A DNA stretch of 64,000 nt, taken from an uncultured Sphingorhabdus sp. (GTDB lineage Bacteria; Pseudomonadota; Alphaproteobacteria; Sphingomonadales; Sphingomonadaceae). Every line of letters begins with the position of its first letter. Position 1 is the first letter of the stretch. Below the pieces are notes generated by a model. It did not search any database. It was not told the origin of the DNA and saw only the letters and a list, made by a program, of their open reading frames with translations. Below, piece after piece: positions 4,937 through 17,213 of this stretch. The translations under genes were made by a program, and so were the position numbers. Location: NCBI GenBank assembly GCA_963508315.1, contig CAUOWK010000001.1:496930-560929 (forward strand), written 5' to 3'.

Positions 4937-5146
4937 TCAAAACATCTCGATCTGGTTGCGGGCATTGGTGTCGAACAGGCCGTGATCGGCGGGGCGCTGC
5001 GCCTTGCGCGGCTCCAGCGGCGCGTTGGCGCGCATGGCGAGACGGTCGCGGGGCGTGATCGGCGCAACGCCGTAAACAAGTGTCTGCTCACCGATTGGGG
5101 TCTGCTCGGACGCCAGCCGGTCTTTGGAAGGGAGCGCGGCGCTCAT
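4937..5146 (-). CDS. Small hypothetical protein (69 aa)
   Basis: Overlaps the ardC stop by 4 nt and fills the operon gap; plausible composition ending GLFD...QIEMF. Confidence 0.65.
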   Translation of the reverse strand: MSAALPSKDRLASEQTPIGEQTLVYGVAPITPRDRLAMRANAPLEPRKAQRPADHGLFDTNARNQIEMF

Positions 5147-6120
5147 GCCGCCCGCGCCAAGGTGGATTCGCTCTCACGAACGAACGCCAACAGAAAATCC
5201 GCTGCCTTGCTGGCTTGCGATGCCGCCTTGAAAATGGCGCGATTGTCAGCGCGCAGCACGGTAAGCCACGAGCCGAGATAATCCGCATGGCGGACGGTCG
5301 GGACGATACCAAGCGCCGCGCAGAGGTAGGCCGAGGCCAATTCGGCGCATAATTCCTCGCGGGCATAGAGCGCGGAACCGAAACGCCCCGACTGGTCACG
5401 CGCCAGCCGCTCCTTGCTGCCCGTCCAGTGGCCGAGTTCGTGCAAAGCCGTCCGGTAAAAGTCGATCTGGTAGGCAAAGGCCGGTTGCGGCGGCACCTGC
5501 ACATAATCGCCGCCAACGTCATAGAAGGCCCGCGCCCCGCCGATGCGGAAATCCGCACCCGTCGCGGCAATCAACGCTTCCGCGCTGTCATGCTGTTCGC
5601 GGGCCGGTAACGGCGTGGGGTCGGCTGTCAGCCGCTCCGGCAAACCGTCACACTGCGCTGCATTGAACACGACAAAGCGTTTGAGGAACGGAATTGAGCG
5701 GGGTTCGCCCTCCGGCACGTCTCCACCTTCGCGCCCATCGTCGGGCGTGAAGCGGTCAGCATAGAAAATCGTTTGCCCGCGCTCACCCTTGCGAACGCAT
5801 CCGCCAGCGGCCAGCGCCTGCCGGAAGGTCAACCAATCCTGCGACGGGTAGCAGCCATCAATGACCGCGCCCCACAGAATGAGAACATTGACGCCCGAAT
5901 AGGGGCGTCCCGAAACCGCGTTGCGGGGGAGTCCCGGCACTGCTGCCGCCGAACTCCACGGCTGCGCCCACGGGAAGCGGCCCGCTTCTAGCTGGGCGAT
6001 AATCTTCGCCGTCACCTCGTCATAGAGCGAAGCGCGGGGCGTATCGCCCCCGTGCGCGGCGCGCAGCGCCGCCTTACCCTTGCCGCCAAAACTACGTTTC
6101 CGATTGCCAACCGCCATCAC
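5143..6120 (-). CDS. ardC: ArdC-family antirestriction / ssDNA-binding protein (DUF1738 + zincin-like domain)
   Basis: GRFPWAQPW, YSGVNVLILW, WLTFRQA, VRKGERG, HELGHWTG zincin motif, YAREELCAEL. Confidence 0.9.
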   Translation of the reverse strand: MMAVGNRKRSFGGKGKAALRAAHGGDTPRASLYDEVTAKIIAQLEAGRFPWAQPWSSAAAVPGLPRNAVSGRPYSGVNVLILWGAVIDGCYPSQDWLTFRQALAAGGCVRKGERGQTIFYADRFTPDDGREGGDVPEGEPRSIPFLKRFVVFNAAQCDGLPERLTADPTPLPAREQHDSAEALIAATGADFRIGGARAFYDVGGDYVQVPPQPAFAYQIDFYRTALHELGHWTGSKERLARDQSGRFGSALYAREELCAELASAYLCAALGIVPTVRHADYLGSWLTVLRADNRAIFKAASQASKAADFLLAFVRESESTLARAA

Positions 6121-6725: not shown

Positions 6726-9700
6726 ATGGATATTGACGCGATCATTGCGGCAAACGCTCCGCCCGATACGCCATCGGGCGCGATCACAAATACGCCAAAA
6801 CTGTATTCGTTCTTCCGAAAGCTGGATGCTGTTGGCACGGCCTCGATGTTAGCGGGCTTGCAGACGTTCTCAGATCATCAAGCAAACTACAGACTTGAAT
6901 GGGCTGCACGATTGGCGTTGGCAGTGGGGTCCGGAAATATACTGCCCAATCCGCCACAGCTTCGCACCCTACTCAATGACCTTCTTGAGAAGAGCCGCGT
7001 GAATCGGCTTGAAGATCCACTTGAGGACGTCATGGTGTCCGCCATTCCCACCGCGCAAGGTGATTATAGACTCCTCACGGGACTTTGGGAAAAGGCTGCG
7101 CATCATACAGAGTCGGTCCTGCGCGCGTTCGAGCGTCTGCCGGACGACGAGCAGAAGCAAGCCGCACTCATACGCGCCTATGCGTTGTTGCAGATTTCAG
7201 ATTTGATCTGCGAGCGTTCAAACCTTGCTGCAAACGCAATGGGCGTTAGCAACCCACGCGAACCGATGCGGCTGACCGGCGTTGGGTTGCTCGCAACCGC
7301 GAAGGCGCGCGTCGAGTTTGGCTGGGACGAGTTGACGGCGTTAGGAGTGTCGAAGGAAATTTTAACGCCATTCCTGCTTCCGCCAACGGCATTTGCGGAT
7401 TTGCTGGAAAAGGCGCTCGGCGACTCCGAGTTAGAGTTCCGGCCCCTTGTGCAAACAGAAGCGGGGATCGCTGTAGTCGCGCCGACGAATTTATCGACGG
7501 CTATTCGTAGCCACCTGATCAACTTAGCGATTGCAGGCGGACAAGGTGATGCCCTGCGCCGCAAGCTGCTACTGGTGCATTCTGAGATCATCGAAACCGG
7601 CAGTTTCACCCGAATGGTGGGGCAAATCAGCGCATTTGGGCATGATGGATATTGCCGAGAGCACATCCAGAAATTGTGCGAGGGAAGATATGTCCATGCC
7701 ATTCAGGCAATCGACGGCTTTGGTGCTTGGCCAAAAAATGCTTTTTGCGCCGATAGCGATGTCGGCAGCAACGCCTTCGGTAATGCTTTGGCTGGCGCAA
7801 TTGCCACGGCTCAAGCCGAGATTGAGGCCAAAACCGACTTCATTGCAGGTGTCAGTTTTGTATTCTTGAGCGGCTGGGGATCGGGCCATTCGTTCAGTTG
7901 GCCCCGTAATGCCGCAATGTCGCGGTGGCAGATCATTTTCATGGAACCCGAAGACGCAATGTTCCTTGGTGCCTGCGAAGACGGAAAGATCGAGGACATT
8001 TGGCGAATGGACAAGCAGCGTGAGCTTGTTGCAGCCCAAGGATTTCATTTCCAGAACGCAAACGGACTCCTTAACATTTTCGAATGGTGGCGAAGCACCA
8101 ACAGCATGTTCATTCCCGAGCATGTCTTGGACGCCCAACCGCCCACTACAATCTATTTCGATACCAATCTGCTGCTCGAAGCCCGGCGGGAGGCGGTCGA
8201 AGCACTGGGTAGACATTGCCTGCCAACACCAAGCGGCAACCCGTTGTTGGTGATGCGACTAGATACCAAGAGCCACTTTTCGGGGCGACAGCCCGTATTC
8301 GCATCAATGGCGGCAGCAAAGTCAGGAATCCTGATGGCAGCGGTAGAGTGTGAACGCGGCGTTGTCTGGGTTCAACTAATGACCGACCGCGACGACCCTA
8401 ACGCATTTGATGCTCACGAAACATGGTCCGCATTGCTTGCTTGGGCGGGACGGTTGCTTGATCCATTTCTGCGTCAGCACGGTCTCCAACTGAATAAGCC
8501 GATTCTCATCCGTTTCGTTGTCGGCTTCCAAAAAGATCGCGATCTTCAGGACATGACCGATGCCGAAATCCTTGAAACGGTCAGCGTTGGTTGGGATCAT
8601 GTCAGCGGTTGCATCGGGCTTTTTGCAGCCCCTGCATGGCATATTGGCTTGCAGCGCAAAGAGAATATCGCCGAAGCTGTGCTGGCGGCAAATTTCTTGT
8701 CGGGTGTCGCTAGTGCGACCGGAACGACGATTTCGCCTGCTCATCTGGTCGATTTCGCGGTGAAGGAAATTGGCAGCCCCTTTGCGCGATGGCGGCATTC
8801 ATTTCTGGCTGAGCGCCCCATAGATATGCTCAAGGCACTTGGTTTGGTGCCCCGTTTCCGCGCCATCCCCCAATCCGCCGCCGCACTGGTCAAAACGGGA
8901 CTTGGCTGGATGAGTCAGTCAAGATCAGATGGCTATTTGATCGAAGGCAAGGCCGAATGCCGCGCTTTTCTCGATGATCAGCACAATCGGCTGCTGCACT
9001 CACTTCTGATCGAGGTAGCAAAATATGACCGCCATAGCCTTGTTGGTGCCTGCCTTACCGCTATGCAGGCCGCTCAAGGAGATGGACGGGGCTGGCAGGA
9101 AACCGCGTTGGCTTTGCAGTCCATTCACGGACGACAGGAAGATTTTGACGTTAGTTTTAATCAAGGCGGTAAGGCCAATGCCGTCATCCGTGCTGCGTCC
9201 ATGCTGGTGGAACTCGCGGTCGCAGAATCACCGGTTTCCGGCGGAAGGCCGATCGGCTATTTCGATTTCGACGAACTCCAAGCCCATGCCGCATTGCTAT
9301 TCAAGAACGCGGATACGATCCCGGCGATAGAGGGTGGGTGGATAAAGGCCACGATCAAAATCGCGCCAACAGGTGACGTATTGCTTGATCGGTCATTTGA
9401 AGAGGCAAGCCTGCAAAAGGCGGCTGAAATTCGTCATCAAGGCGAGCGCGACACTAAGGCAGAGCGTCAGGGCAATACAAGCACAGACCCGGGCGGCATG
9501 TCTGATCCCGGCGCAGCACTTACGGCAGCAATAGAAGCCGAATTTGGGGTAGGCGATGATTTGTATTTCGGGTTTGCCAATGCGCTCTCGATCATCGCTG
9601 AAACCGTAAAATCTGGCGTTTTCTCGATGCGACGGTCCGAACTGCGAATGGCGGTAAATGGTCAGGACGAGCAGTTGCGAGACCTTTCACCGCTCATAGA

Positions 9701-10466
9701 TCGTTACACGCTACCGTGCCGTAAGGGATGGGCTGCAACTCCGGCTGGCGTATCAGCCCGAGATTATGATCTCGCAAAGTTTGACCGCCGCTTCTCACTT
9801 ATTGGTCGTCCGATAGTCGCGATTGACGATGATAACGACCCATTGCTGATGCTGGCGCCCGGAGTCGTCGAGCGCAGCTTGTTCCATAATTTGGGAGGGG
9901 CGCTCACAGGCGGTCTCCAAAATGAATTCTGGTCGAGCGGGGAGATGCAAAAGTTCGCCAGCAGGCGCGGCGACGAGACTGGTTTGGCGTTTAATGATGA
10001 ACTCGCCCGCGAGCTGGTCGCTCTCGGCTTGGAAGCCCACGCCTCAGCGAAGCTCACTTGGTGCCTAAATCACAAAGGGACAGATGAGGTGAAGCGGCTC
10101 GGTGACGTCGATGTATTGGTATTTTCACCAGATCGCACACGTGTTTGGGTTATCGAGGCCAAGGATTTGAAGATGTGTCGGACACTCGGTGAAACGGCGC
10201 GCCGTCTGTCCGAATATCAAGGAATAACAAAGGAAAACGGGAAGCCGGACAATTTGTTGAAGCACCTCAACCGCGTCGATTATGTTAGAAAATATGCCTC
10301 CGACCTTCAAAGTCGCTTCAAGCTGACACACCTGCCGAAAGTTTCGGGTATGGTGGTCGTAGGATCGCCGCAGCCAATGGAGATGATCGCAATCAAGGGC
10401 GGAAAGGATGCGGTGACGGTGCGAAAGGAAAGTCTGTTACAAGTGCCGTGGGACGACGGATATTGA
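6726..10466 (+). CDS. Large uncharacterised protein (1246 aa) with C-terminal PD-(D/E)XK/NERD-like nuclease motifs
   Basis: 3.7-kb open frame; C-terminal LGDVDVLVFSPDRTRVWVIEAKDL and KHLNR resemble PD-(D/E)XK motifs II-IV; first ~1000 aa not recognised. Confidence 0.75.
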   Translation: MDIDAIIAANAPPDTPSGAITNTPKLYSFFRKLDAVGTASMLAGLQTFSDHQANYRLEWAARLALAVGSGNILPNPPQLRTLLNDLLEKSRVNRLEDPLEDVMVSAIPTAQGDYRLLTGLWEKAAHHTESVLRAFERLPDDEQKQAALIRAYALLQISDLICERSNLAANAMGVSNPREPMRLTGVGLLATAKARVEFGWDELTALGVSKEILTPFLLPPTAFADLLEKALGDSELEFRPLVQTEAGIAVVAPTNLSTAIRSHLINLAIAGGQGDALRRKLLLVHSEIIETGSFTRMVGQISAFGHDGYCREHIQKLCEGRYVHAIQAIDGFGAWPKNAFCADSDVGSNAFGNALAGAIATAQAEIEAKTDFIAGVSFVFLSGWGSGHSFSWPRNAAMSRWQIIFMEPEDAMFLGACEDGKIEDIWRMDKQRELVAAQGFHFQNANGLLNIFEWWRSTNSMFIPEHVLDAQPPTTIYFDTNLLLEARREAVEALGRHCLPTPSGNPLLVMRLDTKSHFSGRQPVFASMAAAKSGILMAAVECERGVVWVQLMTDRDDPNAFDAHETWSALLAWAGRLLDPFLRQHGLQLNKPILIRFVVGFQKDRDLQDMTDAEILETVSVGWDHVSGCIGLFAAPAWHIGLQRKENIAEAVLAANFLSGVASATGTTISPAHLVDFAVKEIGSPFARWRHSFLAERPIDMLKALGLVPRFRAIPQSAAALVKTGLGWMSQSRSDGYLIEGKAECRAFLDDQHNRLLHSLLIEVAKYDRHSLVGACLTAMQAAQGDGRGWQETALALQSIHGRQEDFDVSFNQGGKANAVIRAASMLVELAVAESPVSGGRPIGYFDFDELQAHAALLFKNADTIPAIEGGWIKATIKIAPTGDVLLDRSFEEASLQKAAEIRHQGERDTKAERQGNTSTDPGGMSDPGAALTAAIEAEFGVGDDLYFGFANALSIIAETVKSGVFSMRRSELRMAVNGQDEQLRDLSPLIDRYTLPCRKGWAATPAGVSARDYDLAKFDRRFSLIGRPIVAIDDDNDPLLMLAPGVVERSLFHNLGGALTGGLQNEFWSSGEMQKFASRRGDETGLAFNDELARELVALGLEAHASAKLTWCLNHKGTDEVKRLGDVDVLVFSPDRTRVWVIEAKDLKMCRTLGETARRLSEYQGITKENGKPDNLLKHLNRVDYVRKYASDLQSRFKLTHLPKVSGMVVVGSPQPMEMIAIKGGKDAVTVRKESLLQVPWDDGY

Positions 10467-10508
10467 GCGTCAGTCTTGCACATTGCTTCGATTTGCCAGT
10501 CCGAGTTG

Positions 10509-11897
10509 TCAATCCGGTGGACCCATTGCTGCGTTTTCGATCACGCGGTCTGTGTGAGCAACCATTTCGTTGTACCACCGGCTCAGCTGCTTGTTTGACA
10601 CAGCTTCCGCGCGGAGCCCGTCTGCACCGATAAGCGACAGCGAGCTTAGCAAGGCACTGCGCCCGATGTCCGCCCCTAAGCCGACGCCTTCGTAAACCAG
10701 ATCCGATGTAGGCGACAACGAGCCGTGAACTAGTTTTGAGCGGATATCATAGGCACGCTTGGTGTCATCGCGCCACTTCTCGCGATTTTCCGCTGTTGGT
10801 TCTTCGAGACAGAGCGCGGCAACTCGCGATGATACCATCGCGGCGATGTCGTCTTTCTCATCGGTCATCACCATTCGTTCCAGCGCAGTGACATATTTGA
10901 CAGCTTTGGCTCCTTGGGACGTCTCGCGGACAGCTTCACCATACCATTGAGCGGCGTCGAGAAACCTGTCGCTGATTGGCCTTTGAAGTGCAGGGTTTGC
11001 AGCAGCTTCGAGTGCTATTCCAAGTCCATTGATTGCTGCTTGCGCTTCCTCATCTGAAAAGAGACTGAGCCAATCATCGTTAAACCCAACTTCGCCGGGG
11101 CCGCCATAAGAGGCGCGATATGAAAGCTCACCCACATCATTGGTATTGAATCCACCGCGTTTGTCATACCCGATGCCGGGTCCGCCTACGGTCATTTTCT
11201 TTGAGTGCCGAGCACCAAACAGGACATGAAGGCAATTCAAAGCCGCGAAGACGGCTTTGGTCGCAGTGGATTCAGATACGTCCTTGTCACAGCCGGTTAC
11301 AGTGATCTCAGCCACCCATCCAAAGGTTTTGAAATAGCGAACGGCATCAAAAATGACACGACGGTTTAGCTTCCGATCAATCACGCGGTTCGCAATAATG
11401 AGATCAGCCAGCTTTTTTCGGAATGTAGCTCGATTAAGAAATCGGACTGGGCCAAGCTGGAATGTAGATGGCTGCTGCGACAGCATAAGGTGGCACGGAA
11501 CATAGTGCGTGAGATCGGACGTAGTCGCTGCGATACGACGGGCGGTTTCTGATAGCGCACGATCAATATGCTTGATCTCAATTGGCCGTCCTTCACGAAC
11601 GAACTTACGAACCAAGACTTCTGCCATCACCTTCCGGGCTGGCTCGATCGAAACCAGCCGTTGAAGCTTCTCCCGTTCCAACGCGACACGGGTAATGCCT
11701 TCTAACTTACCAAAGCCAGCTCTGCTGCACATCATCTTACCGTTAGGCCAGTTGTGTGTCGGATGCGGCAAATCGCAGAAAGCGTCTTCACGCGGCAGAT
11801 CGGCGAAGCGGCCCTCATTCACCATAGCATTAAGACGTGCGCACTCTTCAAAAATGAAGGCAACATCCGCTATCAATTGATCTTTGCTAATCCCCAT
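10509..11897 (-). CDS. HEPN-domain protein (Apea-like HEPN at C-terminus)
   Basis: FLDAAQWYGEA, YVTALERMV and AYDIRSKLVHG (RxxxxH) pattern typical of Apea-like HEPN. Confidence 0.75.
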   Translation of the reverse strand: MGISKDQLIADVAFIFEECARLNAMVNEGRFADLPREDAFCDLPHPTHNWPNGKMMCSRAGFGKLEGITRVALEREKLQRLVSIEPARKVMAEVLVRKFVREGRPIEIKHIDRALSETARRIAATTSDLTHYVPCHLMLSQQPSTFQLGPVRFLNRATFRKKLADLIIANRVIDRKLNRRVIFDAVRYFKTFGWVAEITVTGCDKDVSESTATKAVFAALNCLHVLFGARHSKKMTVGGPGIGYDKRGGFNTNDVGELSYRASYGGPGEVGFNDDWLSLFSDEEAQAAINGLGIALEAAANPALQRPISDRFLDAAQWYGEAVRETSQGAKAVKYVTALERMVMTDEKDDIAAMVSSRVAALCLEEPTAENREKWRDDTKRAYDIRSKLVHGSLSPTSDLVYEGVGLGADIGRSALLSSLSLIGADGLRAEAVSNKQLSRWYNEMVAHTDRVIENAAMGPPD

Positions 11898-11918
11898 CGA
11901 CGCTGACTGGCCTGTTCC

Positions 11919-14900
11919 TCACGCGGCATAGCGCCCATCGGGCAACCGCCGTGCCTGACCAATGGCTGTCAGCGCATCCAGCACCGGTGTAACACCTTTT
12001 GCATTCGTGCCCTGGATGGCGCGGGCGATGTCGCGGGGGTGTTGGGGGATTGGGGCTGCGGCGAGAATAGCGGCGACGGCGCTGACTTGTTCGGCGAGCG
12101 TCTTAGGCCAGGGGATGATTGCTGAGGGTGCGGCAACCGGGGCATCTCCGAGGTCGAGCGTGGCGTTGACTTGCGGGGCCGTGGCACCGGGGGACTGGAA
12201 TTCGGGACGAAGCCAGCGGATCACGCCCTTTGCCTCTTCGGTGGCACGGGTCTTGTTGAGTGCAACCAAGCGCGTGAGGATGTCTTCATCGCTCAGGTCA
12301 GCGGGCCAGCCATAGGCTTCGGCGACGGCCGTATCTATTGCATCGTGATGCTGCCGGATCAGCGTCACCAACCCGCGATCATGGATGTCGCGCTCCTTAT
12401 CGGTCAGTGCGCGGCCTGCTCTCAATGCTTCCACCACGTTATAGAGGCCGGTCAGGGTCAGATCGTCATGCGCGGCCAGCACTTGTTTACGCAAGGCGTC
12501 GAGCGCTTCCGCTTCGGAGCGGATGCGGGATTTGAGCGGATCGGGAACATCTGCCGGGAATGGGAAAGGGTCGAAGCAACGCGACTTCACATAGACCGGG
12601 TCGTCACCCATCCCCAATCGCCCACCGCTTTCAATGGCCCACGGCACATGAAAACGGCTCGAAAGAACACCAAGGAAATAAGCGTCATCAAGTGCGATGC
12701 AGGCCAGCTTGTTATCCGGCAGGATCGACATGGGGAGGAACTGGAACACGCGGTGTTTGGCGGTTTCGATGGTTGCGATGTAGCGCGTCACCCCTGATAG
12801 TGCTTTGCGGAGTTCACTACGTGCTTCACCGAACAACCACCAATTATCACGATAGCTGGCGCGATTGTTCTGCTCACGGTGTGGCTTCACTGTTGTCGCA
12901 ACATGCTGATAGACCGCTGGATAGCGATCCCTGACTTGCGCTTCGGTCAGGCCGTAAAGGTCGATCACTTTCACCCCGCGCGGACGGGAAGCAAGATCGC
13001 GCCCGTTGCGATAGTCAAAAATCACTTGGACATCGCCCGCACCGCCCGTGCGAATTCGCGCTTCCTCCCGTTTTCCATCATCCAAGGATGCAGAACCTTG
13101 GCCTTCTTCGGGGTGACGTAAGAAGGCTTGTGGACGACCCACAACGCCACTCGGACGTCCCGCCCACGCCGAAGCAGGATCGAGTAATACCACCTGCGCA
13201 GGCGTGACGATAAAGCCGTCGCCCATTAACTGGACGCCGCGTGAGGCGAGCTTATCATTTGCCTTCAACGGAATTGTGGACGCAACATTCGCACCAATGC
13301 GTAGGTCGGCGCTAATCTGCCCGATATTGATGCCGAATGTAACCGTTTGCGGTGCCGCAGTTTCGTCCAAAACGGTTTGCATCATCCCTGAATCGCGCCC
13401 GGATTTTCGTTGCGGTTCAACCACGGTCATAGCGATGCGGACGGCGGCCCCGTCCTTTTCATCTACCCAAGGGTGATTGGGAATCGCAAATCTCAGGCTG
13501 ACGCCTGCCTTGGCATCCAGATGTTTGGCGATAACGCGACGGCTGAAAACCTGCGTAATGCTGTTGGTGGTGACGAAGCCAAAGCGCCGGGACTTGTCCT
13601 TGCGTAGCGCAACCGCCGCCTTATCCCACCAGTGCATAACAAAATCCGCGCTTTCGGGAACATCGGTGGTCTTGAACAGCGCATCAAAATAGCCGCCACC
13701 CAATCGCTCACGCACATCCTTGCCGCCAATAAACGGTGGATTGCCAACGATGAAATCGGCCTTTGGCCACTTCGCGGCCTTGGGCGTGACGTAACGCTCC
13801 ACCTCTACCCGCGCATCCTCATCTGGCACTTTTTTGCCCGTTACGGGATGCAGCTTCATCGTCTCACCGTCCCAGCGTGTGAGCGGCTTGCCATGCTCGT
13901 CCCGCTCCAGCACTTTCTTGTCCCAAGTAATCAGCGCATCGCGGTTTTCGATGGTCTTCACGTCGCGCAGTACGGGTTCGGGCGGCACTTTGCCTTCGCC
14001 GTTCACGCGGAAATGCCATTGCAGATAGCCGATCCACAACACGAGTTGGGCAATCGCCGCCGCGCGGGGGTTGATCTCGATGCCGAGGAAATTTTCGGGC
14101 GTAATCGTGTGACCGCTTAGCTCTGCCACTGCCTGCTTCTCGCCGTCGGGTTCGAGTTCGGCCAGTCGTCCGATCACTTCGCCCTCCAGCTCCTTCATCC
14201 GGGCAAGCGCGACATAAAGGAAGTTTCCGGTGCCGCAGGCAGGATCAAGCACTTTGATCTGGGCGAGTTGCGCATGGAATTTCTCGATTACGGCGTGGGC
14301 TTCTTCGGCCTTACCCGCCTCAATCAACTGACCGGCAGCGGCCTGCACCCCAGCCCAATCGGCGCGCAGCGGCTCCATGATCGTCGGCATGACGAGCCGC
14401 TCGACATAGGCGCGCGGGGTGTAATGCGCGCCGAGCTTGGCACGTTCCTTACCATCCAACGCGCGTTCAAGCAGCGTGCCGAAGATCGCGGGTTCGACAT
14501 GGTTCCACTTGTGCGTTGCCGCCTCGATCAACAGGCCGATCTCGTCGGCATTGAGCGCAATCGCCGTGGTATCTTTGAACAGATAGCCGTTGAAGTGCAG
14601 CACCGTTTCGCCAGCTTCGCCCAGAACACCGGCCAAACCGCCCTTATCCATCGCCTGCCATAGCGATGACAGGTTCGGCGCGAAGTTCTCCGGGCGCTTC
14701 TGCATCCGGGTAAGGAAGTTCGTGAAGCTGCCTTCCGGGATCAACTGCACATCCTCGGCGAACATCGTGAACAGGCAGCGCATCAGGAAATCGGCGACGC
14801 GGGTGGGGTTCTGCTCACTCTTTTCCAGGCGTTTGGAAAGTTCCGCCAGATGCCCGGCAATCTCGCGTGTAACGCGGGCGGCTTCTTTTGACGGGTCAAG

Positions 14901-15530
14901 ACTGAGCGGGTCCGTCCAGATCGTCGCAAGCCGCGTGCGGACGTCATCGCTCCGCAAATCGTCTAGCGCGATGCGGAAACGGGCGGCATCTGGGAATTGG
15001 GTGTATTGCTTCCCGGTTCCGCTGAAATCGGCATAGACGTCGATGCAGTGGCCGACGTCGGTGACGAGCAGGAAGGGCGGCCAACCGTGATCAATCGGCA
15101 GCGCCTTGGCATAGCGTTCGGCCTGTCCGCGCGCCTCGACCATTGCCTTTGACCAAGTGGGTGTGCCGCGCTTGGCCGTGCCGCGCTTGAAACGGGCGGC
15201 GGCGGTCTGGCCGAAAATGTCGAGGTCGGCTTCGCCCTGTTCTGCGGCCTTGCGGTCGGCGTCGCTGCCCTGTTTGGCCTCCAGCACGAAGCAGTGGCGT
15301 TTGTAGGCGTCGATTCGGCCGAAACTTTCGGTGCCATCGGCTTCCTTCTGGAACACGCGACGCTCGAACACATAATCATTGTGGGTGTCATCGGTGCGGC
15401 TGCCCTTGGGCGGATCGACGCCGATCAGGGCGCAAAGGCCGTTGACGAAACTTTGCGTGTTCGCGAGTTCAGAGCCGCCGGTCAGCGCCCATTCGGAAAT
15501 GAAGGATTCGAGTTTGTCGCTATCTGACAC
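11919..15530 (-). CDS. MmeI-like type IIL single-chain restriction endonuclease / N6-adenine methyltransferase
   Basis: N-terminal ELANTQSF and RIDAY..FVLEAK nuclease motifs; GAHYTP, VLDPACGTGNFL (motif I), IVGNPPF (motif IV); C-terminal target-recognition region; GTG start. Confidence 0.9.
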   Translation of the reverse strand: MSDSDKLESFISEWALTGGSELANTQSFVNGLCALIGVDPPKGSRTDDTHNDYVFERRVFQKEADGTESFGRIDAYKRHCFVLEAKQGSDADRKAAEQGEADLDIFGQTAAARFKRGTAKRGTPTWSKAMVEARGQAERYAKALPIDHGWPPFLLVTDVGHCIDVYADFSGTGKQYTQFPDAARFRIALDDLRSDDVRTRLATIWTDPLSLDPSKEAARVTREIAGHLAELSKRLEKSEQNPTRVADFLMRCLFTMFAEDVQLIPEGSFTNFLTRMQKRPENFAPNLSSLWQAMDKGGLAGVLGEAGETVLHFNGYLFKDTTAIALNADEIGLLIEAATHKWNHVEPAIFGTLLERALDGKERAKLGAHYTPRAYVERLVMPTIMEPLRADWAGVQAAAGQLIEAGKAEEAHAVIEKFHAQLAQIKVLDPACGTGNFLYVALARMKELEGEVIGRLAELEPDGEKQAVAELSGHTITPENFLGIEINPRAAAIAQLVLWIGYLQWHFRVNGEGKVPPEPVLRDVKTIENRDALITWDKKVLERDEHGKPLTRWDGETMKLHPVTGKKVPDEDARVEVERYVTPKAAKWPKADFIVGNPPFIGGKDVRERLGGGYFDALFKTTDVPESADFVMHWWDKAAVALRKDKSRRFGFVTTNSITQVFSRRVIAKHLDAKAGVSLRFAIPNHPWVDEKDGAAVRIAMTVVEPQRKSGRDSGMMQTVLDETAAPQTVTFGINIGQISADLRIGANVASTIPLKANDKLASRGVQLMGDGFIVTPAQVVLLDPASAWAGRPSGVVGRPQAFLRHPEEGQGSASLDDGKREEARIRTGGAGDVQVIFDYRNGRDLASRPRGVKVIDLYGLTEAQVRDRYPAVYQHVATTVKPHREQNNRASYRDNWWLFGEARSELRKALSGVTRYIATIETAKHRVFQFLPMSILPDNKLACIALDDAYFLGVLSSRFHVPWAIESGGRLGMGDDPVYVKSRCFDPFPFPADVPDPLKSRIRSEAEALDALRKQVLAAHDDLTLTGLYNVVEALRAGRALTDKERDIHDRGLVTLIRQHHDAIDTAVAEAYGWPADLSDEDILTRLVALNKTRATEEAKGVIRWLRPEFQSPGATAPQVNATLDLGDAPVAAPSAIIPWPKTLAEQVSAVAAILAAAPIPQHPRDIARAIQGTNAKGVTPVLDALTAIGQARRLPDGRYAA

Positions 15531-15587
15531 GGATTGTCTTTAGCCGTCGAAGCTCATTACTCGCAATCAACAAACGGCGTAGCAGTT

Positions 15588-16709
15588 TCATTTGGAATCA
15601 ACGCCCTCATCGACGGTAAGCCAATACCGCGCATAGCGCCGCTCGCCAGTGCGGGTCAGCGCACCCTTTTCGATCAAGTCGTTCAGATCGCGGGTAGCAG
15701 TCGCCAGACTGGCATCCGTGATCGTCCGGTAATTCCCGGCGCTCAAACCACCCGCAAAGCCGTCCGGCCCTTCACGAAACAGGCGCAGCAAAGCCTTTTC
15801 CTGCCGTTCGTTGATCTGCCCACGCAAGCGATCCAGCAGTCGCGTCTTGTCGATCAGGAAGCGGATACGCGTGATCGTCCGCGCCTGCGCCTCGATGACA
15901 ATATCGGCAAACCATGTCAGCCAGGCATCAATGTCGTTGCTCTGGCTGCCGAGCTGGAGGGCGGCATAATAGGCTTTGCGGTGGCGATGGATCGTTTCCG
16001 CGAGCGCCGTCAGCGTCGGGGCCGCAAGGTTTTGCGCCAAAGCCTTTTCAGCAATCGCGCGCCCGATCCGGCCATTGCCATCCTCGAAGGGATGGATGCT
16101 CTCAAACCACAGGTGCGAGATAGCGGCTCGGGTGATCGCCGGAAGCGGGTTCGCAGATGCCGGTGCGCTGTCGTTGAACCACGCTATGAAACGGGACATT
16201 TCCGCAGGAACGGTATCGGACGGCGGTGCCTCGAAATGCACACGCGGCGCGTGAAGCGCGCCCGAAACGATCTGCATCGCATCTTCATGGCTGCGATAGC
16301 GCCCGACATCGGCAATATCGCGCCGCACGTTCATCAACATTGCGTGCCATGCGAACAGGGTCTGGTCGTCAAGCGGTGCAGCATGGTTGCGGTAAACATC
16401 GGCCATCAATTCAGCGGCCCCGGCCTCTGCCGCACTGGCGCGGCGCTGGTCGGTGGCAAAGCCCAGATGCCGTGCAAGCGACGACTGAACGCTGGCGCGG
16501 TCGAGGATTTCACCTTCGATGGCGGAGCTATCGACCACTTCTTGTGAAATCAGTTCGATGGTCAGGCCATCGCGCGCATCGGCGTCAAGGTGGTGCAGCG
16601 CGCCAATGACGACGCCCGAGCCTTTCAGGAATTGCTCGTCGGACGCGCGGATGCGATCCGCGTCGAAGCGGAAATCAGGCCAGTCGGGAAGTTGCCAGTT
16701 CCAGCGCAT
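15588..16709 (-). CDS. Fic family protein with DUF4172-type N-terminus and C-terminal wHTH
   Basis: MRWNWQLPDWP start, canonical HPFEDGNGRIGR Fic motif, ATATRDLNDL helix. Confidence 0.92.
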   Translation of the reverse strand: MRWNWQLPDWPDFRFDADRIRASDEQFLKGSGVVIGALHHLDADARDGLTIELISQEVVDSSAIEGEILDRASVQSSLARHLGFATDQRRASAAEAGAAELMADVYRNHAAPLDDQTLFAWHAMLMNVRRDIADVGRYRSHEDAMQIVSGALHAPRVHFEAPPSDTVPAEMSRFIAWFNDSAPASANPLPAITRAAISHLWFESIHPFEDGNGRIGRAIAEKALAQNLAAPTLTALAETIHRHRKAYYAALQLGSQSNDIDAWLTWFADIVIEAQARTITRIRFLIDKTRLLDRLRGQINERQEKALLRLFREGPDGFAGGLSAGNYRTITDASLATATRDLNDLIEKGALTRTGERRYARYWLTVDEGVDSK

Positions 16710-16762: not shown

Positions 16763-17100
16763 AAGCGATAGCCAATCGCTCACAAGCGATGCTTCCCGCC
16801 GTCGTTTTGTAGCGACCGCCGAATTTTGCGCACCGCTTAAACCCCAAAAAGTTGCAGTGACCCTCTCTTAAGTCACAAAAAGTTGCGCTGGGCCTTCCGA
16901 CCAAGGCTCATGTGGACGCTTCGCGGTGTCATTTTGCGGCGATGGCCGAATCCCGTCCGGGATTCCAATGGCCAGCATGACAATGCCGTTCGATTGTCAT
17001 TTCGCCTGAAGCGGGGCGCGGCCCGTTCGGGCCACCATACCCCGCTTTGGCATTATCCCGCCACCGTGCGGTGGCGTAATTGGATCATGCTAAGAGGGGA

Positions 17101-17154
17101 TGGTGCGGGCGGCGGGAATCGAACCCGCACCCCTCTCGGAACGGGATTTTGAGT
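17101..17154 (-). tRNA. 3' half of tRNA-Leu(CAA): att-site remnant, not an intact tRNA
   Basis: Reverse complement ACTCAAAATCCCGTTCCGAGAGGGGTGCGGGTTCGATTCCCGCCGCCCGCACCA has anticodon loop, long variable arm, T-arm and CCA; tRNA similarity stops at the anticodon loop. Confidence 0.85.
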
Positions 17155-17213
17155 GGGACGAGACTTCCGTAAGTATCTGTATATGAAAGATTTAATTTGG
17201 TCAAGCCAGAAAC

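Follow-up and report, generated by a model that had tools for sequence, protein, structure and literature searches.

A probable two-gene cassette of an MmeI-type restriction–modification enzyme and an uncatalogued, putative HEPN protein in the defence cargo of a Sphingorhabdus conjugative element

We analysed a 64,000-nucleotide (nt) stretch of DNA from an uncultured Sphingorhabdus sp. (assembly GCA_963508315.1, contig CAUOWK010000001.1, positions 496,930 to 560,929; hereafter the window), in which a gene for a single-chain restriction–modification (R-M) enzyme of the MmeI type is followed by a gene for a 462-amino-acid (aa) protein with a putative C-terminal HEPN domain. Comparison of this pair across genomes and metagenomes suggests that the two genes form one inherited two-gene cassette, and that each partner also occurs without the other and is probably autonomous. 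We lean, with some reserve, towards a reading in which the cassette is co-expressed and a self-regulated HEPN effector backs up restriction, the link between the two consisting of shared expression and inheritance. The pair lies with genes for an Upx homologue and a Fic protein in an island of an integrative and conjugative element (ICE).

The survey on which this rests was centred on the HEPN gene and covered 30 species-representative genome loci, 59 metagenome loci and seven exact-protein look-ups; contexts were counted by the similarity of their flanks, and some metagenome contigs may come from related elements. Among HEPN relatives of at least 61% identity, the gene immediately upstream, on the same strand and 3–48 bp away, is of the MmeI type in about nine flank contexts. 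Besides the window and its nearest counterpart (L002, 97% HEPN identity), the pair is present in L032–L034 (89%), together with the whole island including the integrase, Fic, Upx, ArdC, DUF2958 and ParB genes; in L082 (85%), a cut contig that retains the C-terminus of the R-M enzyme; in L086 (82%), where the enzyme lacks its N-terminal nuclease; in L083/L088 (75%) and L035/L036 (73%, with a relaxase and an integrase gene); and in L004, L005, L006/L091 and L092 (62–64%) and L038 (61%). The flanks of the about nine paired loci are unlike on at least one side. The junction between the two genes, by comparison, is kept at 21 bp in the window (R-M stop TGA at 11919–11921, HEPN start ATG at 11895–11897), L002, L032, L082 and L086, and at 3 bp (TGA-gcc-ATG) in L004, L005, L006, L038, L091 and L092; it measures at most 48 bp elsewhere, and the R-M 3′ end '...gcgTGA' is retained in all paired loci. 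Differing flanks around a conserved junction point to one ancestral cassette and not to repeated insertions. The HEPN tree is broadly congruent with a tree of the N-terminal 760 residues of the R-M enzymes, and all-against-all clustering of the neighbours of the 30 genome loci revealed no family except the MmeI-type enzymes recurring in three or more loci. We take the R-M and HEPN genes to be a single heritable unit, and their geometry suggests that they are co-transcribed. A first-pass annotation of this DNA had proposed that the two genes are coupled and had staked the proposal on their co-occurrence in other genomes. The genes do co-occur, with the junction kept, in about nine contexts; as a rule for the neighbourhood, the association stands at 61% identity and above, and fails both among homologues under 55% identity and in the 29 other R-M-bearing genomes of the same order.

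The 1203-aa R-M protein is, by its domains and motifs, a complete MmeI-family enzyme. It matches the Pfam models MmeI_N (E = 1.7e-25), MmeI_hel (1.2e-17) and MmeI_Mtase (2.3e-36), all above their cut-offs, and MmeI_TRD at 1.2e-4 with 21.9 bits, slightly under the cut-off of 27; the PADLOC model REase_MTase_IIG is matched at E = 0. The nuclease motif D74-X9-E84-x-K86 (E84-A-K86) is encoded at nt 15273–15311 and the methylase motif IV, NPPF (NPPF597), at nt 13731–13742. Enzymes of the MmeI family modify a single strand (m6A) and cut about 20 bp away from their site. The enzyme shares with MmeI and other type IIL (IIG) enzymes both these D-X9-ExK and NPPF motifs and the domain order of nuclease, helical spacer, gamma-class N6-adenine methylase and target-recognition domain (TRD); MmeI, however, was described as a solitary gene, whereas the window enzyme is paired with a HEPN gene (PMC2582602, PMC2731913, PMC4833311). 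Alignment of the R-M gene of the window (11919–15530) with that of L032 (3136–6618) reveals a mosaic, with an identity of 95% in both nuclease and spacer, 63% in the methylase, 39% in the TRD and 85% in the C-terminal tail. The methylase–TRD specificity core has thus been exchanged among close relatives while the HEPN pairing and the ICE island stayed in place. At L086 (228–2939), the enzyme is represented by an 88-aa MmeI_hel fragment and a 795-aa methylase–TRD open reading frame (ORF), with an intact HEPN gene 21 bp downstream.

The 462-aa protein matched no Pfam, NCBIfam or PADLOC model in scans to E ≤ 10, and neither the protein nor its 89-sequence profile had a meaningful sequence match in the PDB. 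Because no defence-finder or Pfam model covers this family, censuses of defence systems will miss it. The 90% database returned 122 matches, and a 50% representative library returned 3389 at E ≤ 1e-3, 834 at 1e-10 and 434 at 1e-30; the members of the last set are nearly all 450–470 aa long and align end to end, with a constant two-domain architecture. An AlphaFold model of the full-length protein (predicted local distance difference test (pLDDT) 91.5, predicted template modelling score (pTM) 0.89) comprises an alpha/beta N-terminal domain of about residues 1–280 and an all-helical C-terminal domain, which was again all helical when modelled alone with AlphaFold2 (pLDDT 94.4). Foldseek found no structural neighbour of the full model (best E = 0.35 in the PDB and 0.08 in BFVD), nor any PDB analogue of the N-terminal domain in that search. 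For the C-terminal domain, the match of best probability was 1ylm, B. subtilis YutE (0.77, TMt 0.54), a DUF86/HepT-type HEPN protein; 4nqf, listed as 'HEPN domain protein', and 8xeh, a HEPN–MNT complex, were also returned, every match having E > 0.6. We accept the HEPN label because the Rx4H motif is invariant, not because of any family model. Within the motif RSKLVHG (RSKLVH at nt 10725–10742), no substitution of R386, S387, H391 or G392 occurs in sets of 21 and of 89 homologues, the latter alignment spanning 30–97% identity and fixing also W318, G320, R324, E340, R358 and Y383 in the C-terminal half and F14, R21, C135, S208, M235 and G239 in the N-terminal half. The N-terminal domain is presumably a sensor or regulator of a predicted RNase, with abortive infection as the probable outcome; RNases of the HEPN superfamily work independently of metal. 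No antitoxin-like small ORF is associated with the gene.

Pairing is not obligatory on either side. No MmeI-type gene lies within 5–10 kb of the intact HEPN gene in L003 (70% identity), L008/L089 (76%) or L090 (68%), and none of the homologues under 55% identity, which make up the remaining genome and metagenome loci, has an MmeI-type neighbour. HEPN genes of this family are found directly behind a type I hsdR-M-S operon (L011), the Mokosh genes MkoA/MkoB (L019) and a PD-Lambda-4 locus (L016), and beside genuine ApeA (L009, L015), a short pAgo with a TIR–Mrr protein (L004) and a Fic protein (L003); their neighbours are enriched in known defence genes, Shosta also among them. In other genomes the gene comes after thiC, a MatE transporter or a histidine kinase, and the 98 flanking proteins of the 26 MmeI-less genome loci fall into 73 Pfam families, none seen more than twice. 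At L004 (11422–14891), the short pAgo (PADLOC pAgo_I, 9e-216) and the TIR–Mrr_cat protein, a SPARTA-like arrangement, converge on the HEPN gene of the cassette, and a Fic gene 29% identical to that of the window lies 4 kb beyond them.

The enzyme, too, is found alone. Across 401 genomes of the same order, a homologue of the R-M enzyme (E ≤ 1e-50) is present in 30 and a HEPN homologue in five, and the two occur together only in the genome of the window; R-M is thus without HEPN in all 29 of the others, the best of these homologues being 65–70% identical over their full length. The R-M tree places HEPN-less enzymes between two HEPN-linked clades, and so requires at least two gains or losses. Downstream of one HEPN-less MmeI-type gene, 67% identical to that of the window (L069, G161:C2), a 306-aa DUF5655 protein is encoded at 5081–6001 with a 4-bp overlap of the R-M stop, and matches the PADLOC candidate PDC-S18 at 1e-139, indicating that the 3′ slot of this R-M lineage takes alternative accessory genes; in other HEPN-less R-Ms the slot holds relaxases or unrelated genes. 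As each partner occurs without the other, both would seem able to act on their own.

We interpret these results, with a slight preference, as a co-expressed cassette with two lines of defence. The MmeI-type enzyme would be the first, with its PD-ExK nuclease, N6-adenine methylase and TRD all on a single chain, and the 462-aa protein would be a self-contained second-line effector. Its N-terminal domain would hold the C-terminal HEPN RNase silent until an infection cue arrives, upon which the RNase would cleave cellular or phage RNA and arrest the cell; the R-M enzyme would be needed neither to restrain nor to trigger the HEPN protein, and Upx and the SoFic-like Fic protein would act as further independent layers. 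That the HEPN protein lives without an antitoxin, alone or behind unrelated systems, would follow from its own N-terminal domain holding the RNase off. Several points weigh against this reading. The structure matches, all at E > 0.6, are only suggestive of a HEPN fold; the R-M-less HEPN copies may be inactive remnants, though they are full length with all invariant residues; and a functional interaction could be the very reason why pairing and junction are conserved to as low as about 60% identity.

Such an interaction might take the form of a guard, in which the HEPN protein is bound and masked by the MmeI-type enzyme and freed as a suicidal RNase once a phage anti-restriction protein blocks the enzyme, in the manner of PrrC and EcoprrI, a general idea that was proposed for R-M-linked HEPN clades by Anantharaman et al. 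2013 (PMC3710099). The preservation of order, orientation and junction in about nine contexts with broadly congruent trees is in keeping with a guard, as is the mosaic of the R-M enzyme, whose nuclease/spacer and tail track HEPN identity while the methylase–TRD core is swapped. We consider the guard unlikely, however, since the intact HEPN gene stands without an MmeI-type gene (L003, L008/L089, L090 and all homologues under 55% identity) or next to an R-M whose nuclease has been deleted (L086), HEPN is missing from all 29 genomes that carry the nearest R-M relatives, and distant members of the HEPN family trail unrelated systems. The protein also carries no ABC-ATPase domain of the PrrC/RloC type (no ATPase family match at E ≤ 10). 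PrrC of EcoprrI and RloC resemble the window case, as there too the gene of a HEPN nuclease accompanies an R-M system and the nuclease is believed to step in when restriction fails, but their N-terminal part is an ABC-ATPase and their genes lie within or next to type I hsd operons, neither of which applies to the window protein; PrrC is moreover masked by its R-M system, whereas the window HEPN family is found intact without the MmeI-type partner. The PrrC/RloC-like coupling envisaged in the first-pass annotation is therefore not supported, given the orphan HEPN genes, the HEPN-less R-Ms, the nuclease-less R-M of L086 and the missing ATPase. For the broader claim that the N-domain–HEPN protein is wired to the MmeI-type enzyme, its N-terminal domain responding to the enzyme being inhibited or to DNA-breakdown products that the enzyme makes, we likewise have little expectation; if true, a single-chain type II R-M enzyme would for the first time be seen to have a guard or amplifier.

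Linkage of HEPN to R-M has in itself been described before: no fewer than 16 clades of HEPN proteins were connected with R-M systems, a 'multi-pronged defence' was proposed for them, and mobile R-M neighbourhoods were noted that hold a Fic/Doc toxin alongside HEPN (Anantharaman et al. 2013, PMC3710099). As in those clades, a HEPN domain (Rx4-6H) here occupies a conserved R-M neighbourhood on mobile DNA, with Fic also present; the window differs in that the partner is a single-chain MmeI-type enzyme, the HEPN family matches no Pfam-modelled clade and the linkage holds only in one HEPN subclade.

A different way for restriction and the HEPN protein to communicate would be through products, with a pocket of the N-terminal domain or HEPN domain binding small DNA-breakdown products released by the R-M enzyme or by phage nucleases and so switching the RNase on. 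The model for this is ApeA, a single-protein tRNase with an N-terminal domain and a HEPN domain whose activator is 5′-phosphorylated deoxydinucleotides (bioRxiv 10.64898/2026.01.26.701840). The architecture of the window protein is analogous to that of ApeA, and members of its family trail several sorts of DNA-cutting system, namely MmeI-type R-M, type I R-M and Mokosh; on the other hand, many homologues have no nuclease neighbour and the protein has no sequence or profile similarity to ApeA, and we give product sensing a low probability. Some database sources label close homologues 'Apea-like HEPN', and membership of ApeA was considered and rejected: the protein matches neither HEPN_Apea (PF18739) nor ApeA_NTD1 (PF18862) at E ≤ 10, nor the PADLOC ApeA model, while the genuine ApeA genes of L009 and L015, as a positive control, match those models at 1.3e-36 and 2.9e-20, and hhalign of the HEPN protein against genuine ApeA gave a probability of 1%. 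The two families have in common an N-terminal domain of about 300 aa, a HEPN domain at the C-terminus and a similar size, and both lack a fixed neighbour, ApeA being a stand-alone abortive-infection gene of defence islands and the present family being so outside its subclade of at least 61% identity; sequence and profile comparison set them apart (10.64898/2026.01.26.701840, 10.64898/2026.03.20.713152). In two Sphingopyxis metagenome-assembled genomes, genuine ApeA genes (ApeA_NTD1 plus HEPN_Apea; L009 4970–6442 and L015 11500–12972) are convergent to 45%-identical HEPN homologues, which places two different effectors of the N-terminal-domain-plus-HEPN kind next to each other.

We also consider unlikely a role outside defence, as an addiction or stabilisation toxin of the mobile element or as a non-catalytic regulatory HEPN, carried along only by its closeness (3–21 bp) to the R-M gene. 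R-M systems themselves act as addiction modules, and the mobile elements on which the pair is always found have integrases, relaxases or resolvases close by. Non-catalytic HEPN domains such as that of MtlR do exist (PMC3710099), yet here all 89 homologues, at 30–97% identity, keep the catalytic R and H, the neighbours are rich in ApeA, Mokosh, PD-Lambda-4, pAgo with TIR, type I R-M and Shosta, and a cognate antitoxin gene is missing.

What is new here is an uncatalogued HEPN family whose N-terminal domain lacks a structural analogue, the family's lasting association with a single MmeI lineage and the existence of natural 'knock-out' variants of each partner; Upx, SoFic, the MmeI family and, since 2013, the linkage of HEPN to R-M were already described. 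If the HEPN protein is indeed wired to the MmeI-type enzyme, some 430 clusters (E ≤ 1e-30) would constitute a new defence family whose sensor fold would be without structural precedent. The pair can be cloned, and would allow one to ask whether an abortive-infection RNase encoded downstream of a restriction enzyme keeps watch on that enzyme or simply shares its expression, with nature providing the controls: each gene without the other, and HEPN together with an R-M that has lost its nuclease.

Turning to the island as a whole, the four ORFs were read where the first-pass annotation had placed them, that of the HEPN protein at 10509–11897 on the minus strand (Table 1). Its description of fic, R-M and HEPN as co-oriented genes with 21 bp from R-M to HEPN agrees with the exact coordinates, and so does that of a giant gene converging on HEPN across 42 bp (stops at 10466 and 10509) with no obvious terminator. 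No terminator-like structure was found in this gap, which folds no better than shuffled sequence (z = 0.79). A consensus scan revealed no minus-strand terminator-like site between the fic, R-M and HEPN genes, a result that is uninformative as the scan is itself at chance level; promoter-like and terminator-like counts over the region are likewise those expected by chance.

Table 1. Positions in the window of the two-gene cassette, the other island genes and their surroundings.
Feature	Coordinates (nt)	Strand	Basis
Upx homologue, 1246 aa, convergent on HEPN gene	6726–10466	+	PADLOC and NCBIfam
Convergent intergenic gap, 42 bp	10467–10508		RNA fold and terminator scan
C-terminal helical HEPN-like domain, residues 281–462 plus stop	10509–11057	-	Motif and AlphaFold2 model
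N-terminal alpha/beta domain, residues 1–280 of the 462-aa protein	11058–11897	-	Conservation and model
R-M/HEPN junction, 21 bp	11898–11918	-	Read directly
MmeI-family single-chain type IIL/IIG R-M enzyme, 1203 aa	11919–15530	-	Pfam, PADLOC, motifs
SoFic-like Fic protein (DUF4172 + Fic), 373 aa	15588–16709	-	Pfam, PADLOC, motif
ArdC-type antirestriction gene of the ICE (context, outside the cassette)	5143–6120	-	Pfam
att-like repeat resembling the 3′ half of a tRNA; island boundary on the fic side	17099–17169		Direct-repeat comparison

All four genes beside ArdC belong to or resemble anti-phage families, as had been supposed of them. We are inclined to view fic, R-M, HEPN and Upx as a layered defence cargo of four separate anti-phage genes; as an island it is ordinary, an ICE cargo of already described defence families. 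The candidacy of Upx or Fic as a part of the R-M/HEPN module was rejected, as they accompany the pair only in the ICE lineage of the window, L002 and L032.

The giant gene had been described as nuclease-tailed, and the idea of a novel nuclease system was dropped in favour of homology to the described Upx. The 1246-aa product matches PADLOC Upx at 9e-136 over residues 30–1220 and NCBIfam NF042954 at 1.4e-153 with 512.8 bits, under the equivalog cut-off of 1900, and its homologue in L032–L034 bears the Upx-like label PF28173 among the Pfam labels precomputed by the Joint Genome Institute. It does have a C-terminal PD-(D/E)xK-like motif, DVDVLV...VIEAKD, read in translation at nt 10149–10166. Homology to Upx (PADLOC-DB v2, NCBIfam) extends over the full length, but with a score so far under the equivalog cut-off the window protein is a distant relative of the tested one. 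At L082 (2421–2579), only the final 50 residues of Upx (66% identical) are left downstream of the HEPN gene, and genes for PIN/VapC, a resolvase and ParB/RepB come next; the rest of Upx was lost there when the cassette moved to a plasmid-like context.

The 373-aa protein matches Pfam DUF4172 (4.8e-28) and Fic (6.5e-18) and PADLOC SoFic (5.8e-44), and its Fic motif is intact (HPFEDGNGRIGR at nt 16059–16094, following the pattern HxFx(D/E)GNGRxxR). It shares with SoFic the DUF4172-plus-Fic arrangement and the intact motif, but at 53.9 bits against the NCBIfam SoFic equivalog cut-off of 550 it is again a distant relative of the tested protein. Two 29-nt direct repeats in tandem (CTTAAnnCnCAAAAAGTTGCnnTG..., 76% identical) are found at 16836–16895 of the window, 127–186 bp upstream of the fic start, and could be operator or recombinase arm sites for a fic–R-M–HEPN unit.

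The island is the cargo end of an ICE, as judged from genes for VirB4 and the type IV coupling protein (T4CP) 14–23 kb to the left of the window on the same contig and from an att-like repeat and an integrase gene beyond fic, and the defence genes sit at its integrase-proximal end. The ArdC gene (Pfam ArdcN 2.9e-37, MPTase-PolyVal 7.4e-50) is followed by a DUF2958 gene and then a ParB-like gene, in an order identical to that in L032–L034. ArdC is carried by the same ICE as the four-gene cargo, so that the element does combine anti-defence with defence genes, as the earlier reading of this DNA had anticipated. The att-like direct repeat is 71 nt long and begins 390 bp beyond fic, and an 87% identical copy at 23838–23908 adjoins the integrase gene (24369–25724); ARAGORN found no whole tRNA in the window. 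The two copies bracket a 6.7-kb cassette between the defence island and the integrase, with genes for a beta-propeller protein, a LysR regulator, a SLAC1/TehA-type channel and a molybdopterin oxidoreductase, an arrangement that looks like serial accretion at the att site. Two type IV secretion gene sets, each with VirB4 and a coupling protein, lie in the 80 kb left of the window (G000:C1:421023–428870 and 474119–483640), which could mean tandem or neighbouring conjugative elements.

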